Assembly: GCF_050920415.1 (NCBI RefSeq)
Contig: NZ_CP169309.1
DNA from: Escherichia coli
Lineage (GTDB): Bacteria; Pseudomonadota; Gammaproteobacteria; Enterobacterales; Enterobacteriaceae
Reading direction: 5' to 3' (one strand)
Length of the DNA: 64,000 nucleotides
How positions within the stretch are numbered: position 1 is the first letter of the stretch; each line of letters begins with the position of its first letter. The translations under genes were made by a program, and so were the position numbers. This document shows positions 4,198 to 13,236 of the stretch, in pieces. Under the pieces are notes generated by a model, which ran no database searches, was not told the origin of the DNA, and saw only the letters and a list, made by a program, of their open reading frames with translations.

Positions 4198-5547
4198 TTG
4201 GCGGGGTTTAACATCAAACATTGGTTTGCAGATGGCGCGTTTCGCACCATTATTCGCAATAGCGCCTGGTTAGGCTCCAGTAATGTCGTGAGCGCTTTGC
4301 TGGGTCTGTTGGCGCTCTCGTGTGCCGGTAAAGGGATGACGCCCGCCATGTTTGGCGTACTGGTGATTGTGCAATCGTACGCCAAGTCGATCAGCGATTT
4401 TATTAAGTTTCAGACATGGCAGCTGGTGGTTCAGTACGGAACGCCAGCCTTGACCAATAATAATCCGCAGCAATTTCGCAATGTCGTCTCATTTTCCTTC
4501 TCGTTGGATATCGTCAGCGGCGCGGTGGCGATTGTCGGCGGCATTGCCTTACTCCCTTTTCTTTCCCATTCATTAGGTCTGGATGACCAAAGCTTTTGGC
4601 TGGCAGCGCTGTATTGCACGCTCATTCCTTCAATGGCTTCCTCCACACCGACCGGCATTCTGCGTGCAGTAGATCGCTTCGATTTGATTGCTGTACAGCA
4701 GGCGACGAAACCTTTTCTGCGCGCAGCGGGGAGCGTCGTAGCCTGGTATTTTGATTTTGGTTTTGCGGGTTTTGTTATTGCCTGGTACGCATCGAATCTG
4801 GTTGGCGGCACCATGTACTGGTGGTTTGCCGCGCGCGAATTACGCCGCAGAAATATCCATAACGCCTTCAAATTGAATCTGTTTGAGTCTGCCCGACACA
4901 TTAAAGGCGCGTGGAGTTTTGTCTGGTCAACCAACATTGCCCACTCCATCTGGTCGGCACGTAACTCGTGCAGCACAGTGTTGGTGGGGATCGTGTTAGG
5001 ACCCGCTGCCGCCGGGTTATTTAAAATCGCCATGACATTCTTCGATGCCGCCGGAACGCCAGCGGGTTTACTGGGCAAAAGTTTTTACCCAGAGGTGATG
5101 CGTTTAGATCCGCGTACCACCAGACCGTGGTTGTTAGGCGTGAAGTCCGGTTTACTGGCGGGCGGAATCGGTATTCTGGTGGCGCTCGCGGTGTTGATCG
5201 TCGGCAAGCCGCTCATTTCGCTGGTGTTTGGCGTTAAGTATCTCGAAGCGTATGACCTGATTCAGGTGATGCTTGGCGCAATTGTGATTTCGATGCTGGG
5301 CTTCCCACAGGAGTCATTGCTATTGATGGCGGGAAAACAGCGCGCTTTTCTCGTGGCGCAAACCATCGCCTCAATCGGCTACATCGTATTGCTGTTCATG
5401 TTCTGTCATCTGTTTGGCGTGCTGGGGGCTGCATTTGCTTACTTCGGTGGGCAATGTCTGGATGTGGTGCTCTCGTTAATTCCAACCTTAAAGGCATTTT
5501 TTCAGCGCCATTCCTTGCTTTATAACGCAGCCGGAGAGAAATCCTGA
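4198..5547 (+). CDS. yghQ: Multi-pass inner-membrane protein, MOP/polysaccharide-biosynthesis (Wzx/MurJ-like) flippase family
   Basis: 449 aa, highly hydrophobic throughout with many predicted TM segments. The track start is a TTG; the true start may be the internal ATG at about 4333. The stop overlaps the next ORF's start (TGATG). Confidence 0.7.
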   Translation: MAGFNIKHWFADGAFRTIIRNSAWLGSSNVVSALLGLLALSCAGKGMTPAMFGVLVIVQSYAKSISDFIKFQTWQLVVQYGTPALTNNNPQQFRNVVSFSFSLDIVSGAVAIVGGIALLPFLSHSLGLDDQSFWLAALYCTLIPSMASSTPTGILRAVDRFDLIAVQQATKPFLRAAGSVVAWYFDFGFAGFVIAWYASNLVGGTMYWWFAARELRRRNIHNAFKLNLFESARHIKGAWSFVWSTNIAHSIWSARNSCSTVLVGIVLGPAAAGLFKIAMTFFDAAGTPAGLLGKSFYPEVMRLDPRTTRPWLLGVKSGLLAGGIGILVALAVLIVGKPLISLVFGVKYLEAYDLIQVMLGAIVISMLGFPQESLLLMAGKQRAFLVAQTIASIGYIVLLFMFCHLFGVLGAAFAYFGGQCLDVVLSLIPTLKAFFQRHSLLYNAAGEKS

Positions 5548-5993
5548 TGATGAGAAAATATTTCCCGCTTGAGGCGAGCGAGCGTCTATTTATTGCAGTT
5601 GAAGAAGATGATGTCGTTGATGCGCAGGTCAGTTTACCGCCGACTATCGCAACAGGTTGTACCACCGAAATCATTCATGATAATTACGCGTTATGCCTGC
5701 AATTCTGGCTGAATGGCGTTGATCGTCAGGAATTACTGCGTTTAATCCACAAACAAGCCAAAGGCGAGGGGCTTACGGCTGACGAGCGTAAACAGTTTAA
5801 ATATATGCGGGCGCGTTATAAGCATCTACGTTTTGCCCAACGGTTGTATTTAAAAAAGCATCAGGCCGGATTTTTATTTGGCAAAACGACCGTTTTTCTT
5901 GGACGTTTTCAGGACGGCTTTCGTAACGGTAAGAAAAATATTGTGTCGTTTTACGGCAACCTTTTACGGATTTATTTAAGCTCTCCGGTCTAG
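5547..5993 (+). CDS. Hypothetical protein, no recognisable motif
   Basis: 148 aa ORF whose ATG overlaps the yghQ stop (translational coupling), same strand as neighbours. Basic, soluble-looking. Confidence 0.5.
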   Translation: MMRKYFPLEASERLFIAVEEDDVVDAQVSLPPTIATGCTTEIIHDNYALCLQFWLNGVDRQELLRLIHKQAKGEGLTADERKQFKYMRARYKHLRFAQRLYLKKHQAGFLFGKTTVFLGRFQDGFRNGKKNIVSFYGNLLRIYLSSPV

Positions 5994-6371
5994 TTGTTGG
6001 TGAACTATTCATTACGCCATAGCCAGTTAGAAAGCGTAAGCGGTTTTATTGCCTATCGGCAAAAGCAAATGCACCTCCTGAAAGAGATTATTGCCAAACC
6101 ACGGCTAACTGGCAGGGAATTTCATGATGTACGAAAAATAATCAGCCAGCAGGTTTCTTATTACGACACCCTAAGATCGCTTGATCCTGAAAATAAAGAA
6201 GCGTTACAGATTTCCCGCTTCCTCGCCGCCATTAATGGCCTGATGGGGGATAAACACGACGACATGGTGGCGGATGATATGGAAAACCGCCAGTCGTATG
6301 ATGCACCGATGGCGCTGGATAGCGATATTCGTCAGCGCTTAGAACTGCTGATTTCGCGTTTTCCGCTATAA
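5994..6371 (+). CDS. Hypothetical protein, start uncertain
   Basis: 125 aa ORF immediately after the previous stop. The track start is TTG; the first in-frame ATG is at about 6069. No motif recognised. Confidence 0.35.
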   Translation: MLVNYSLRHSQLESVSGFIAYRQKQMHLLKEIIAKPRLTGREFHDVRKIISQQVSYYDTLRSLDPENKEALQISRFLAAINGLMGDKHDDMVADDMENRQSYDAPMALDSDIRQRLELLISRFPL

Positions 6372-6973: not shown

Positions 6974-8044
6974 ATGAAGCTGGTTGAACACTACATCATG
7001 CGTGGTACGCGCCGTCTGGTGCTGATTATCGTCGGTTTTCTGATCTTTATTTTCGCCAGCTACTCCGCACAGCGTTATCTGACCGAAGCGGCAAATGGGA
7101 CATTAGCTCTTGATGTTGTGCTGGATATTGTTTTCTACAAGGTGCTGATTGCACTGGAGATGTTGTTACCTGTTGGACTGTATGTGTCAGTTGGCGTGAC
7201 GCTAGGGCAGATGTATACCGACTCGGAAATTACCGCTATTTCTGCGGCGGGGGGGAGTCCGGGACGCTTGTACAAAGCCGTTCTTTATCTGGCGATACCG
7301 CTAAGTATTTTTGTCACCCTTCTGTCGATGTATGGTCGTCCGTGGGCTTATGCGCAGATTTATCAACTGGAGCAACAGTCGCAGTCGGAGCTGGATGTTC
7401 GCCAGTTGCGGGCAAAGAAATTTAACACTAACGATAACGGACGAATGATCCTTTCGCAGACGGTTGATCAGGATAATAATCGCCTGACTGACGTGCTGAT
7501 TTATACTTCTACTGCCAATCGAACCCGTATTTTCCGCGCCCGTTCGGTTGATGTAGTTGACCCATCACCCGAGAAACCGACCGTTATGTTGCATAACGGG
7601 ACCGCCTATCTTCTCGATCATCAGGGGCGTGACGACAACGAACAGATCTACCGTAATCTGCAATTGCATCTGAATCCGCTGGATCAAAGCCCTAACGTCA
7701 AACGCAAAGCAAAATCGGTCACGGAGCTGGCGCGCTCCGCCTTTCCTGCCGATCATGCCGAACTGCAATGGCGACAAAGCCGTGGCCTGACAGCATTGTT
7801 GATGGCGCTGCTGGCCATTTCATTAAGTCGGGTAAAACCGCGGCAAGGGCGATTTTCAACGTTATTGCCACTGACGTTGCTGTTTGTTGCCATTTTTTAT
7901 GGCGGCGACGTCTGCCGTACGCTGGTGGCTAACGGCGCGATTCCCCTCATTCCTGGTTTGTGGTTAGTACCCGGACTCATGCTAATGGGCCTGCTGATGC
8001 TGGTCGCACGCGACTTCTCTTTGCTGCAGAAATTTTCCCGATGA
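6974..8044 (+). CDS. LptF/LptG-family (YjgP/YjgQ) permease, paralog 1
   Basis: 356 aa. N-terminal TM helix, then a large periplasmic domain and C-terminal TM bundle, matching the LptF/LptG topology. Stop overlaps the next start (ATGA). Confidence 0.8.
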   Translation: MKLVEHYIMRGTRRLVLIIVGFLIFIFASYSAQRYLTEAANGTLALDVVLDIVFYKVLIALEMLLPVGLYVSVGVTLGQMYTDSEITAISAAGGSPGRLYKAVLYLAIPLSIFVTLLSMYGRPWAYAQIYQLEQQSQSELDVRQLRAKKFNTNDNGRMILSQTVDQDNNRLTDVLIYTSTANRTRIFRARSVDVVDPSPEKPTVMLHNGTAYLLDHQGRDDNEQIYRNLQLHLNPLDQSPNVKRKAKSVTELARSAFPADHAELQWRQSRGLTALLMALLAISLSRVKPRQGRFSTLLPLTLLFVAIFYGGDVCRTLVANGAIPLIPGLWLVPGLMLMGLLMLVARDFSLLQKFSR

Positions 8045-9120
8045 ATGTTTTCAGTCGCTATTTAATTCGTCATCTCTTTCTCGGTTTTGCCGCCGCCGCA
8101 GGGCTATTGCTGCCGCTCTTTACCACCTTCAACCTGATTAACGAACTGGATGATGTCAGCCCGGGTGGTTATCGCTGGACTCAGGCGGTGCTGGTGGTGC
8201 TGATGACCTTACCGCGCACACTGGTCGAACTTTCGCCGTTTATCGCCTTATTGGGAGGGATTGTCGGCCTGGGGCAGTTATCGAAAAACAGTGAGCTTAC
8301 CGCCATTCGCAGCACGGGGTTTTCTATCTTCCGTATTGCACTGGTGGCGCTGGTTGCCGGGATATTGTGGACTGTTTCATTAGGCACGATAGATGAGTGG
8401 GTGGCGTCGCCATTGCAGCAACAGGCGCTGCAAATCAAATCGACTGCCACTGCGTTGGGGGAGGACGATGACATTACCGGCAATATGCTGTGGGCCAGGC
8501 GTGGTAATGAATTTGTGACGGTGAAATCGCTGAACGAGCAGGGCCAGCCGGTGGGCGTGGAGATATTTCATTACCGCGACGATCTCTCGCTCGAATCCTA
8601 CATTTATGCACGCAGTGCCACCATTGAAGACGACAAAACGTGGATCCTGCATGGTGTGAATCATAAAAAATGGCTGAATGGCAAAGAAACGCTGGAAACA
8701 TCTGATAATCTTGCCTGGCAATCGGCCTTCACCAGTATGAATCTTGAAGAGTTATCGATGCCGGGAAATACTTTTTCTGTCCGTCAACTTAATCATTACA
8801 TCCATTATTTGCAGGAAACCGGGCAACCCAGCAGCGAATACCGCTTTGCACTGTGGGAAAAACTGGGACAACCCATCTTGACCCTTGCGATGATTTTGCT
8901 GGCTGTGCCGTTTACCTTTAGTGCCCCGCGTTCGCCTGGGATGGGTAGCCGTCTCGCTGTAGGCGTCATCGTGGGGTTACTCACCTGGAGCAGCTATCAA
9001 ATCATGGTCAATCTGGGATTGCTATTTGCGTTGAGCGCACCTGTTACCGCGCTCGGTTTACCGATAGCGTTTATGCTGGTGGCGTTGAGCCTGGTGTATT
9101 GGTATGACAGTCAACATTAA
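8041..9120 (+). CDS. LptF/LptG-family (YjgP/YjgQ) permease, paralog 2
   Basis: Start taken at the ATG at 8041 (MNVFSRYLIRHLFLGF...), not the longer track ORF from 7960. LGQLSKNSELTAIRSTGFS parallels LptG LGMLAQRSELVVMQASGFT. Periplasmic middle domain and C-terminal TMs. Confidence 0.8.
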   Translation: MNVFSRYLIRHLFLGFAAAAGLLLPLFTTFNLINELDDVSPGGYRWTQAVLVVLMTLPRTLVELSPFIALLGGIVGLGQLSKNSELTAIRSTGFSIFRIALVALVAGILWTVSLGTIDEWVASPLQQQALQIKSTATALGEDDDITGNMLWARRGNEFVTVKSLNEQGQPVGVEIFHYRDDLSLESYIYARSATIEDDKTWILHGVNHKKWLNGKETLETSDNLAWQSAFTSMNLEELSMPGNTFSVRQLNHYIHYLQETGQPSSEYRFALWEKLGQPILTLAMILLAVPFTFSAPRSPGMGSRLAVGVIVGLLTWSSYQIMVNLGLLFALSAPVTALGLPIAFMLVALSLVYWYDSQH

Positions 9121-9121
9121 A

Positions 9122-9148
9122 CCCGCCGTGGCGCAGCACCACAGCGGG
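9122..9148. terminator. Imperfect hairpin at the convergent junction of the two opposing operons
   Basis: CCCGCCGTGG ... CCACAGCGGG with one mismatch, in the 34 bp between the permease stop (9120) and the synthase stop (9155-9157). Confidence 0.3.
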
Positions 9149-9154
9149 CTCACA

Positions 9155-10327
9155 TTACTGCTTCAGAGTAGCAAATGCCTGAATGATGGCATCGATTTGC
9201 TCACGAGTGTGGGCAGCGTTTACGCTACAGCGCAGCAGCGTGATGCCTGCAGGCGCGGCAGGTGGCAGGATAAGATTCACATAAACGCCCAGCGAAATAA
9301 GCTCGCGCCAGATGCGTAAACCTTCCTCTTTCGAACCGATTATTACTGGCACTACCGGGCTAATATGTGAACTTAACTCGTAACCCAGTTTTTGCAGACC
9401 GTCATACAGATGGCTGGCGTTATCCATCAGCTTTTGCCGCAACTCTGGTTGTGAGGCAATGGTTCTTAACGACGAGCGCACGGTCGCAATGCAGGACGGA
9501 GAAGGAGAGGCGGTAAAAATATACGGGCGGCTGCCGTAGCGCAGCACTTCCATCGCTTCCGAACCGACAGCAAAACCGCCAATCGAGGCCAGACTTTTAC
9601 TGAAAGTACCAACGATAATATCCACATCATCTTCAACGCCAACGGCTTCAGCCAGTCCGCGCCCCGTTGCGCCTAACACGCCAAACGAATGCGCTTCATC
9701 GACAATCAAATAACCACCGAGACGACGTTTGATATCAACAATTTCCGCCAGCGGCGCAACGTCACCGAGCATACTGTAGATGCCTTCAACGATGATAATC
9801 GCCTCTTTTGCCCGTTCACCGAGGCGAACCATGCGCCGTTCCAGATCTTTAGCATCGTTATGGCGGAAACGAATAATTTCCGCTCCACCGAGAGAACAGG
9901 CGTCATAAATACTGGCGTGGCTATCGGCATCCAGTAACACCACGGCGTTATGGTCGGCAAGTGCGCTGATGACACCTAAATTAGCGGTATAACCGGTTGA
10001 AAAAACGATAGCGGTAGGGCGATTGAAAAACTCGGCAATCTCTTTCTCTAACGCCAGATGTGGCGCATAGCTGCCATTAGCCATACGAGAACCGGTAGTG
10101 CCGGTGCCTTGTGCCGCTAATGCTGCCTGACCTTCGGTGATGGCATCATGATTGAAAGTTAAACCGAGATAATTATTAGTCCCGGCCAGAATCACTTTTT
10201 TATTGCCGATACGGCCTTCAGTGGCGGAGTACACTTCATCAATACAGGTACCAAACGGCGTTAATCCGTTGTCACTAAATTGCAGTCGCTCGCCAGCAAG
10301 GCGCGCATATTTATCGTATAGCCCCAT
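9155..10327 (-). CDS. PLP-dependent alpha-oxoamine synthase (serine palmitoyltransferase / KBL / BioF family)
   Basis: 390 aa. Motifs DEAHSFGVLGATGRG and GTFSKSLASIGGF (PLP lysine) are hallmarks of alpha-oxoamine synthases. Start overlaps the ACP stop by 1 nt. Confidence 0.85.
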   Translation of the reverse strand: MGLYDKYARLAGERLQFSDNGLTPFGTCIDEVYSATEGRIGNKKVILAGTNNYLGLTFNHDAITEGQAALAAQGTGTTGSRMANGSYAPHLALEKEIAEFFNRPTAIVFSTGYTANLGVISALADHNAVVLLDADSHASIYDACSLGGAEIIRFRHNDAKDLERRMVRLGERAKEAIIIVEGIYSMLGDVAPLAEIVDIKRRLGGYLIVDEAHSFGVLGATGRGLAEAVGVEDDVDIIVGTFSKSLASIGGFAVGSEAMEVLRYGSRPYIFTASPSPSCIATVRSSLRTIASQPELRQKLMDNASHLYDGLQKLGYELSSHISPVVPVIIGSKEEGLRIWRELISLGVYVNLILPPAAPAGITLLRCSVNAAHTREQIDAIIQAFATLKQ

Positions 10328-10575
10328 TATTTATTCTCCAGCCATGGAAGTAGAGTTTCCATTAATTGCGCAGGGGTTTTGACATCCAGCAGAATATTAA
10401 TAGGAATGGAAATATCGAATCTGTCTTCCAGCATCATTAAGAGATCCATCACTTTGATCGACTCCAGGCCAAGATCGTTGACGAGATCGCTGTCGGGCTT
10501 AATTTCCACACCGTTTTCGACCAAATCCTGTAAACAGGAAAGGATGTAATCCATTACTATTTCACGATTTACCAT
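10327..10575 (-). CDS. Acyl carrier protein (phosphopantetheine-binding)
   Basis: 82 aa acidic protein. DLGLESIKVMDL is a candidate 4'-phosphopantetheine attachment site. Lies between the synthase and the reductase. Confidence 0.75.
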   Translation of the reverse strand: MVNREIVMDYILSCLQDLVENGVEIKPDSDLVNDLGLESIKVMDLLMMLEDRFDISIPINILLDVKTPAQLMETLLPWLENK

Positions 10576-10606: not shown

Positions 10607-11521
10607 TCAAAATAGCCCGCTGCGTAATGCGTGTTCCAGGCTAATCCCGGGAAACCAATTAATATCTTCAGAAATACGGTTATTACTTGCTGACCAGTCG
10701 GCGTGGGTTAATTCACGGATTTTCGAGCGGGTCAGCATAGGTTCTTTACCTGCCAGGCGACTCAACGCGGTACTGATATCCGCAAGGCAGGTGAGTACCG
10801 ACAGAGGAATACCAACCATTCGAACGGAACCGCAACGGGCGTCGGCGGCAAGTTGCTGTACGCGTTGCCAGTCATAGCCGCCGGCGACGCCATCGCATAA
10901 TTCATAGGTTTGCGTTTGTACAGTTTCGGCGCTTAACCACTGCCCCACGGCTTGCGCGAAATCGGTGACGTGCAGGAAAGAGAGCTGTGTATCTGGCGCA
11001 CCAAGTCGTGGCAGCAGGCCGCGCAGCATCCAGCCAAACAGCGGTTTTAACTCTTTATCGCCGGGACCATACACGGCTGTCGGGCGAAAAATGCCCAGCG
11101 TAATTTCGTCAGCCATTGCGGTCAGTCGTTGTTCGGCGACGTGTTTGGAATTTGCGTACCAGGAGAGTTCGGGATGGCGCGCCGCCAGCGAAGAGATAAA
11201 CAGAAAACGTTGGCAAAAGCCGCTCTCTTTTGCCGCTTGCATCAGGCGCAGGCTGCCGTCAACGTTACAGCGGGTAAAAATCTCTTCTTTGTGTCCGCGC
11301 ACTTGCCCGGCGCAATGGACCACCGCGCTGGCTCCGGCAACCAGTTCGCTAAGCGAATGTGTATCTTCCAGCGAACCGCGCACCCAGATGAGATTATCAT
11401 TGACGTGAGCGCGGGCAGTACGCGTCAATGCGCGAACGTGAAAGCCGCGGGCGAGCAGGTTATCGATAATATATTTACCGATAAACCCGGTAGCGCCCGT
11501 CACCGCGACAGTTTGATTCAT
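10607..11521 (-). CDS. NAD(P)-dependent epimerase/dehydratase-family reductase (extended SDR)
   Basis: 304 aa. N-terminal Rossmann motif VAVTGATGFIG and catalytic YANSK (YxxxK). Start overlaps the ligase stop (ATGA). Confidence 0.8.
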   Translation of the reverse strand: MNQTVAVTGATGFIGKYIIDNLLARGFHVRALTRTARAHVNDNLIWVRGSLEDTHSLSELVAGASAVVHCAGQVRGHKEEIFTRCNVDGSLRLMQAAKESGFCQRFLFISSLAARHPELSWYANSKHVAEQRLTAMADEITLGIFRPTAVYGPGDKELKPLFGWMLRGLLPRLGAPDTQLSFLHVTDFAQAVGQWLSAETVQTQTYELCDGVAGGYDWQRVQQLAADARCGSVRMVGIPLSVLTCLADISTALSRLAGKEPMLTRSKIRELTHADWSASNNRISEDINWFPGISLEHALRSGLF

Positions 11522-13236
11522 GCCATGGATTCCTGCACATGAAGGCTTGCAGCATAACGTTTTTTCGCTTCCGCACGGGCAGGCTTGCCGGAGGACGTTC
11601 GGGGAATACTGTGGGGCGGCAACAGATCGATAGCCGCTGTTACGCCAAATTCGCTTTGGATCCGTGCTGCCAGTGCGTGGATAAGCTGCCCACGACGTTC
11701 TTCGTCGCTGATCCTACACTGGATCTGCAAAATGATTTTTTCCTGGGCGGTAACAAAAGCAATCGCATCGCCAGAATGAATTTCCGGTTCCTGTTCCGCA
11801 ATATATTCAATATCCTGCGGCCAGATATTACGGCCACGAATAATAATCAGATCTTTAATGCGCCCGGTGACATACAGATAACCATCCAGCAGATAACCGA
11901 GGTCGCCGGTATCTAACCAGCCCGTCGCGGCAATCTCGTCTTGCGAAACCTGGTCGCCAAAGTAACCGCTCATCAGGCTGGGGCCGGAGATGCAAATATG
12001 GCCTACCACACGTTCCGCGACCGGCATACCTGCTTCATTGCGGATTTCAATGCCATGTTCCGGCAACGCTTTACCGCAGTTGACGAAAGTCGATACGGCG
12101 CGTGTTTCAGCACCCGGCGCGACGGCTTTGCCCTGATATTCAAGGATGTCGCGATCCACTTCGTTAACCACAACCCCGGAGGCTTCATCAGAGAAGCTGA
12201 CAGCCAGCGCATTTTCTGCCAGTCCGTAGCACGGCATGAAAGTTTTATCGTCAAAGTTAACCTGACGGAAACATTCAGCAAATTGGTGGAGTTGTTCTGC
12301 GGAGATGGGTTCTGCGCCAATACCAGCGACGCGCCAGCACGAGAGATCCAGTTCAGCGAGATCTTTTTCATTCACGCGGCGCTGACACAATTCATAGCCA
12401 AACGGCGGCGCGACGGAAACTGTGCCACGATTTTTACTGATCAATTTAAGCCATTGCAGCGGACGCATGGCAAAATCCTGAGTGCGCAAATAATCTACTG
12501 AGAGCTGCGTGGCGACGGGGGTCAGGAGAAAGCCGACCAGTCCCATATCATGGTAGAAAGGCAGCCAGGAGACGCAGCGGTCGCCAGGGCGTAATTTAAT
12601 GCCATCGTGGCTTATAGCACGTAGATTAGCCATCACTTCGCGATGGGTGATAATGACGCCACGGGGAAAACGGGTGCTGCCGGAGGTGTACTGGAGGTAG
12701 GCGATATCGTTCGGAACTGGACGCTGGAGTACAACATCGGCTTCCGGTAATGCCTTAAACCAGGCGTGGCTTAAAACATGTAATTCGGGGTTGTTATGCG
12801 TAGCAGCATTGACCAGTGGCAACCACTCATCACCAGTGATAATGGCTGCGGGCTGGCAACTAGCCAGTAAACCTTGCAGTTTAGCGCTCCAGGAATCCCG
12901 CTGACCGACGCCCATTGGAATCGCTAACGGGACGGCGACTAAGCCGGCATACTGGCAGGCAAAAAAAGCCTCTACAAACCCGCTACTCGTTTCGGCAATC
13001 AGCGCCACGCGATCGCCTTTTTTCAGATTTAGTGATAACAACCGCTTCGCACCAGCTTCGGCACACGCTTTTAACGTCTGATATTCCAGTTGATCTTCAA
13101 GTTGGCAACGTCTGTCATAAAAATTCATTCCGGCGCTACTCAGAGCGGCGTAGTCCAAAGCATCAACCAGCGTTGGAAAATCGGCATAGCGCATAGGTAG
13201 GGAATGCGTAAAGATGTTATTAGACATATACACCAC
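11518..13236 (-). CDS. Fatty-acyl-AMP ligase / acyl-ACP synthetase (adenylate-forming enzyme)
   Basis: 572 aa. AMP-binding motifs YTSGSTRFPRGV, DTGDLGY and GRIKDLIIIRGRNIWPQDIE. The exact start (Met1, Met4 or Met15) is uncertain. Confidence 0.85.
   Translation of the reverse strand: MVYMSNNIFTHSLPMRYADFPTLVDALDYAALSSAGMNFYDRRCQLEDQLEYQTLKACAEAGAKRLLSLNLKKGDRVALIAETSSGFVEAFFACQYAGLVAVPLAIPMGVGQRDSWSAKLQGLLASCQPAAIITGDEWLPLVNAATHNNPELHVLSHAWFKALPEADVVLQRPVPNDIAYLQYTSGSTRFPRGVIITHREVMANLRAISHDGIKLRPGDRCVSWLPFYHDMGLVGFLLTPVATQLSVDYLRTQDFAMRPLQWLKLISKNRGTVSVAPPFGYELCQRRVNEKDLAELDLSCWRVAGIGAEPISAEQLHQFAECFRQVNFDDKTFMPCYGLAENALAVSFSDEASGVVVNEVDRDILEYQGKAVAPGAETRAVSTFVNCGKALPEHGIEIRNEAGMPVAERVVGHICISGPSLMSGYFGDQVSQDEIAATGWLDTGDLGYLLDGYLYVTGRIKDLIIIRGRNIWPQDIEYIAEQEPEIHSGDAIAFVTAQEKIILQIQCRISDEERRGQLIHALAARIQSEFGVTAAIDLLPPHSIPRTSSGKPARAEAKKRYAASLHVQESMA

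Follow-up and report, generated by a model that had tools for sequence, protein, structure and literature searches.

Overlapping bidirectional terminators that carry a hairpin and lie between convergent genes form an established and prevalent class in Escherichia coli, as revealed by SEnd-seq (Ju et al., 2019, as related in bioRxiv 10.1101/2022.10.23.513370), and for members of this class without classical features the latter preprint proposes a polymerase-collision mechanism. In addition, when a terminator was situated a few bp behind a translated gene in E. coli, the trailing ribosome was reported to repress it almost entirely (PMC4824070).

The sphingolipid loci of Caulobacter crescentus, E. 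coli BL21 and E. coli UTI89 contain the same genes as the locus studied here, namely aasR, epi, acpR, spt, yghO (aca) and the LptF/LptG paralogues (PMC9386255; bioRxiv 10.64898/2026.04.12.717747). In the former, Spt, AcpR and AasR were characterised from E. coli BL21(DE3) as ECD_02851-02854, the BL21 spt orthologue ECD_02854 was assayed and yghO was described as an N-acyltransferase; the roles of acpR, epi and aasR used below are taken from the same text (PMC9386255). In the latter, a 2026 preprint, sphingolipid transport was shown to depend on the LptF/LptG paralogues of the Caulobacter sphingolipid locus, and a depiction of the E. coli UTI89 locus was included (bioRxiv 10.64898/2026.04.12.717747). 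The available portions of both sources deal with enzymes and transporters, and neither the junction nor a terminator at it is mentioned in them.

In the present work, we computationally analysed the junction at which the transporter genes and the biosynthetic genes of such a locus converge, within a window of 64,000 nucleotides of the E. coli assembly GCF_050920415.1 (contig NZ_CP169309.1). A literature search for RNA ends at this junction returned enzymology, transporter and general terminator papers, none of which maps ends here. K-12, the usual strain for term-seq, lacks the sphingolipid locus.

Genes and Operons at the Locus

The window is a 100% match to E. coli strain MFDS1022581 over 8600-9700, and related sequence was present in 4,121 of the 5,426 complete E. 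coli genomes and absent from the other 1,305. According to the PGAP annotation of the matching record, one strand carries, in order, gss, pitB, yghT, yghS, a hypothetical gene, a MOP-flippase-like gene, another hypothetical gene, a YtfJ-family gene, lptF and lptG, while the other strand carries spt, an ACP gene, a gene for an NAD-dependent epimerase/dehydratase and one for a fatty acyl-AMP ligase, after which come yghO and glcC. The region corresponds to the sphingolipid (yghQ-yghO) accessory locus of E. coli.

On the + strand, an LptF-family permease gene at 6974-8044 (Pfam PF03739, 1.9e-55; TIGR04407, 323 bits) represents an accessory, "lptF2"-like paralogue; it sits in the yghQ-yghO accessory cluster and was named lptF by PGAP in a strain with one base difference across the region. 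It is followed by the final gene of the operon, an LptG-family permease gene ("lptG2"-like) at 8041-9120 (PF03739, 2.9e-68; TIGR04408, 303.7 bits), whose annotated start overlaps the lptF stop by 4 bp. On the - strand, the final gene is spt, encoding serine palmitoyltransferase, at 9155-10327 (NF047599, 599.6 bits against a cutoff of 500; also named spt by PGAP), and profile searches together with PGAP identified the phosphopantetheine-binding ACP gene acpR at 10327-10575, the SDR/epimerase gene epi at 10607-11521 and the fatty acyl-AMP ligase gene aasR at 11518-13236. Neighbouring genes here either overlap, by 1 bp or 4 bp, or are separated by a gap of 31 bp, which indicates that aasR-epi-acpR-spt is one operon. 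An earlier note on this DNA, made from the letters alone, had described a permease operon converging with a biosynthetic operon, and this gene layout was borne out by the profile searches and by PGAP.

Both PGAP and the NCBIfam equivalog models gave the accessory genes at 6974-9120 the names lptF and lptG ("LPS export ABC transporter permease"). Since the locus is a sphingolipid locus missing from approximately one quarter of complete E. coli genomes, and since the Caulobacter counterparts have been assigned to sphingolipid transport, the LPS-export name is probably an over-annotation. The window and MFDS1022581 differed at a single base over the 18.7 kb compared. This base, at 5992, changes TGG to TAG (W149*) in a hypothetical gene of 274 aa at 5547-6371 (+), splitting it into two ORFs, and the genes directly following it are the ytfJ-like, lptF-like and lptG-like ones. 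The new stop codon could be polar on the transporter genes and lower the + strand transcription that arrives at the junction.

Geometry of the Convergent Junction

The lptG-like ORF ends with a TAA at 9118-9120 (+) and the spt ORF with a TAA at 9157-9155 (-), so the spacer separating both stop codons, 9121-9154, measures exactly 34 bp according to the ORF list and the sequence; the gene ends were the same in the PGAP annotation of a strain with an identical junction. The convergent junction, its 34 bp and the imperfect hairpin at 9122-9148 were thus located correctly in the earlier note. The seven convergent junctions of the window had spacers of 6, 34, 48, 48, 64, 312 and 422 bp (n = 7, from a crude ORF call), among which 34 bp is unexceptional, and the 48- and 64-bp spacers fold comparably per nucleotide to the 34-bp spacer. 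We therefore rejected the idea of an exceptionally tight junction, with the yghO/glcC junction at 6 bp and others at 48 bp in the same window. At the former, yghO (+, end 14741) and glcC (-, end 14748) leave 6 bp between their stops, which are free of a hairpin (-1.4 and -2.2 kcal/mol), and this junction is both tighter and structurally barer than that of the lptG-like gene and spt.

A promoter scan detected no promoter-like site near the junction, and the two weak promoter-like sites inside spt, approximately 460-720 bp from the spacer, were no greater in number than in shuffled sequence. An ORF on the + strand at 9104-9319 (71 aa), antisense to spt and starting inside the lptG-like gene, was unsupported and was treated as spurious. 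A search of 8600-9700 on both strands with the Rfam 15 covariance models gave no match at E up to 1.

Folding of the Hairpin on the Two Strands

The inverted repeat at 9122-9148 consists of the arms CCCGCCGTGG and CCACAGCGGG around a 7-nt loop (CGCAGCA), with one mismatch, C9127·A9143. In the lptG-sense RNA (+), this sequence folds into 5+4 bp flanking the mismatch, closed by the 7-nt loop, at -14.6 to -15.7 kcal/mol, with z = -2.3 to -2.7 against dinucleotide shuffles; the sequence 3' of the stem is CUCACAUUACUG, without a U tract. In the spt-sense RNA (-), a G·U pair takes the place of the C·A mismatch, and the loop is shortened to 3 nt by two extra pairs, resulting in an unbroken stem of 12 bp that includes two G·U pairs (-22 kcal/mol), and with its flanks the stem reaches 16 bp over 9118-9152 (-27.7 kcal/mol), with z = -4.1 to -6.3. 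As read from the sequence, a U-rich tail, UUUAAUGUU, directly follows the - strand stem from 9121 down to 9113, overlapping the stop and last codons of the lptG-like gene, and its tract is interrupted by AA.

A stable GC-rich stem-loop (stem of at least 5 bp, loop of 3-8 nt) was accordingly found on both strands, whereas a U-rich tract was found only on the - strand. The terminator scan asked for at least five T in eight bases, which UUUAAUGUU provides, and the consensus scan reported a terminator-like site at the junction on the - strand only; on the + strand none was reported at the junction or across 9157-10500, including the interior of spt. The distance from the stop codon to the stem is 1 nt for the lptG-like gene and 2-6 nt for spt. 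The hairpin had previously been called weak and imperfect, which is true for the + strand RNA of the window allele but false for the unbroken and strong - strand RNA. The folding energies of 9122-9148, which had been proposed as a check, divided in the same way, being weaker on the + strand (-15.7 kcal/mol) and strong on the - strand (-27.7 kcal/mol).

Alleles Within E. coli

Alignment of sampled E. coli junctions revealed an invariant 5' arm, together with variation of G/A at 9143, A/G at 9136 in the loop and a 1-nt insertion in the loop. Position 9143 is A in the window and G in most E. coli, and A9143 creates the + strand mismatch, while on the - strand pairing is retained as G·U. Alleles were counted as exact 74-mer matches among about 4,110 complete E. 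coli genomes with the junction. A perfect stem was found with a 7-nt loop in 1,370 genomes and with an 8-nt loop in 1,186, the combination of A9143 and A9136 (ST131 type) in 564, and the window allele (A9143, G9136) in 63; approximately 930 genomes vary elsewhere in the 74-mer and were left unclassified. The perfect 10-bp stem is therefore present in at least 2,556 of the roughly 4,110 genomes (at least 62%). The perfect allele folds at -21.9 kcal/mol (+) and -29.9 kcal/mol (-), compared with -15.7 (+) and -27.7 (-) for the A9143 alleles, so that G9143A costs 6.2 kcal/mol on the + strand versus 2.2 kcal/mol on the - strand. Judged by these allele sequences, the imperfection of the hairpin is an allele and not a design feature.

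With up to 3 mismatches allowed, the hairpin matched the window at one place, and it occupied a median of one place per genome (3,833-4,110 genomes), which marks it as a local signal and not a dispersed repeat. A REP/BIME repeat was rejected on the same grounds. REP/BIME palindromes resemble the junction element in being GC-rich, imperfect palindromes of E. coli 3' intergenic regions; however, they have many dispersed copies per genome and the junction hairpin has one.

Conservation in Escherichia and Other Genera

We aligned ten distinct but closely related Escherichia alleles, among them those of E. whittamii and of three further divergent Escherichia genomes taken from the genome scan. Standard pairs occupied 95.6% of alignment cells, compared with 38-51% when the 3' partners were slid by 1-3 columns, and the value of 95.6% was attained by 4 of 500 shuffles. 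Two compensatory pair changes were observed, the replacement of C-G by U-A in strain SCPM and that of G-C by A-U in E. whittamii. With two events among ten closely related sequences, covariation within Escherichia offers modest evidence for a retained structure. Moreover, GGGTTTAAT was invariant or nearly so across the aligned Escherichia alleles.

The spt and lptG-like genes also converge in Citrobacter amalonaticus, C. youngae, three Pseudocitrobacter genomes and Hafnia paralvei. The spacers there measure 44-90 bp and contain stable hairpins that are unrelated in sequence to that of Escherichia. The Pseudocitrobacter hairpins folded at -30 to -33 kcal/mol (z = -5.5 to -7.3), the z values were -4.1 and -2.4 for C. 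amalonaticus and -3.6 and -3.2 for C. youngae, and the hairpin of Hafnia was weaker (z = -2.7 and -1.2). A structure retained by position and not by sequence is what would be expected of a terminator or insulator at the junction. These hairpins of other genera give stronger support than the Escherichia covariation, and they point to insulation of the two operons, not to cross-talk. In Pseudocitrobacter vendiensis, both stop codons lie within the extended stem (UGAAU pairs with AUUCA), and the 44-bp spacer and both stops form one near-perfect palindrome.

Discussion

From the sequence, the fold energies, the distribution of alleles and the conservation, all of which were observed directly, we infer termination and its efficiency on either strand. 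The explanation that we favour, with a probability of approximately 70%, is that the spacer contains one shared, strand-asymmetric terminator hairpin serving two converging operons. In the - strand RNA, the unbroken GC-rich stem of 12-16 bp followed by UUUAAUGUU would most likely act as a canonical Rho-independent terminator, and 9122-9148 is a probable intrinsic terminator of the aasR-epi-acpR-spt operon, whose transcript would end within the last codons of the lptG-like gene. In the + strand RNA, the weaker hairpin without a U tract would at most cause pausing or partial termination of the polymerases of the lptF/lptG-like operon, a pause or a partial stop being its probable function, and any polymerase that passes it would continue antisense into spt and be stopped there by Rho or by collision. 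Read-through from the transporter side is plausible because this strand has no U tract and its hairpin begins 1 nt after the stop codon. The converse, antisense read-through from the spt side, had also been suggested in the earlier note, and it was not supported given the strong - strand hairpin (-27.7 kcal/mol) and its tail UUUAAUGUU.

The - strand resembles the Rho-independent terminators of E. coli in its GC-rich 12-bp stem, short loop and U-rich 3' stretch, placed just past the last stop of the operon. The junction differs from them in that its U tract is interrupted (UUUAAUGUU), a point against reading it as a terminator, and overlaps the opposing stop, in that the + strand has no U tract at all, and in that the stem is unusually close to both stops (1 nt and 2-6 nt). 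Because of this closeness and the repression of such terminators by the trailing ribosome (PMC4824070), efficiency could drop on both strands, and some read-through appears plausible, more so on the + strand. The junction can also be placed beside the overlapping bidirectional terminators, as one hairpin element in a convergent spacer folds on both transcripts and the same layout recurs in other genera. It shares with that class a single palindrome in a short convergent spacer and predicted 3' ends that overlap by about 40 nt; in contrast, the junction is markedly asymmetric, with one strand that looks classical, whereas members of the class are said in the preprint not to resemble intrinsic terminators.

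A bidirectional terminator of the collision type is the first competitor to a shared asymmetric terminator, and one that we regard as rather unlikely. Here the hairpin would only be a pause site that fixes the meeting point of the polymerases, trailing polymerases would release the stalled ones, and the hairpin would terminate nothing by itself. This model was shown for convergent E. coli pairs whose junction hairpins have no classical terminator features (bioRxiv 10.1101/2022.10.23.513370), and both the missing U tract of the + strand here and the Pseudocitrobacter junction hairpins, which have no clear U tract on either strand, agree with it. However, the U-rich tail at the - strand stem in Escherichia and the conservation of GGGTTTAAT make the classical mechanism sufficient, and collision requires good transcription of both operons; if it operates, it may apply to the + strand. 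A junction that is leaky by design, at which antisense RNA over the opposite 3' gene couples or mutually limits the expression of transporter and synthesis genes, seems quite improbable to us. The + strand hairpin of the window allele is indeed weak, without a U tract and 1 nt behind the stop codon, the consensus scan found no other + strand terminator-like site inside spt, and a balance of export and synthesis does seem to matter physiologically, since LptF2/G2 of Caulobacter could not be deleted while the anionic sphingolipid was made (bioRxiv 10.64898/2026.04.12.717747). Nevertheless, the strong - strand signal would permit leakage in one direction at most, the stem is perfect in most E. 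coli, hairpins are maintained at this place in several genera as insulation would predict, and mutual inhibition of two jointly needed functions brings no obvious benefit.

A further reading, which we consider highly doubtful, would make the junction a one-way valve whose leakiness varies by E. coli lineage, the spt operon being always tightly terminated and the LptF2/G2 operon reading through, with antisense RNA or collisions over spt as the result. If this were true, G9143A would raise + strand read-through, as its cost of 6.2 kcal/mol on the + strand against 2.2 on the - strand implies, and lineages such as ST131 would have a different balance of sphingolipid synthesis and export. It is very improbable, finally, that the hairpin is a chance or neutral palindrome without a role in transcription, or solely a 3' stabiliser against exonucleases. 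Short GC-rich palindromes do arise randomly, the + strand z was modest (-2.3 to -2.7), and a role in stabilising mRNA is inseparable from termination by sequence; yet the - strand z reached -6.3, the U-rich tail adjoins the - strand stem, compensatory changes occurred, and other genera have hairpins of unrelated sequence at the corresponding junction.

Read as a shared asymmetric terminator, the feature is of an ordinary kind for a convergent junction, since bacteria normally end two converging operons in such a way; the genes of the locus have already been described, and no new mechanism is indicated. It defines likely 3' boundaries for the aasR-epi-acpR-spt operon and the adjacent LptF2/LptG2-like operon, with little importance beyond annotation. 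An overlap of about 40 nt between the two transcripts, with one hairpin in common, is probable and is useful to consider when these genes are cloned or deleted. It is of mild interest that a common natural SNP at 9143 weakens the hairpin mainly in one direction, and the G/A difference offers a ready natural test of the effect of a single stem mismatch on direction-dependent termination.

In E. coli PK8217, an IS5 is inserted 21 nt beyond the hairpin (equivalent to 9169/9170), and spt and the remaining synthesis operon have been lost; in E. coli BS-04, the whole cluster is present as a heavily decayed remnant, in which a copy of the hairpin, likewise degraded, can be recognised. These two cases are too few to call the junction an insertion/deletion hotspot. 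Furthermore, the alleles of approximately 91% identity in PM7, A28 and 1912D004 carry many substitutions in the last 40 nt of the lptG-like gene (9080-9120), while neither their spacer nor the first 45 nt at the 3' end of spt differs from the common allele, a pattern suggestive of a breakpoint of recombination in these alleles at the junction or close to it.
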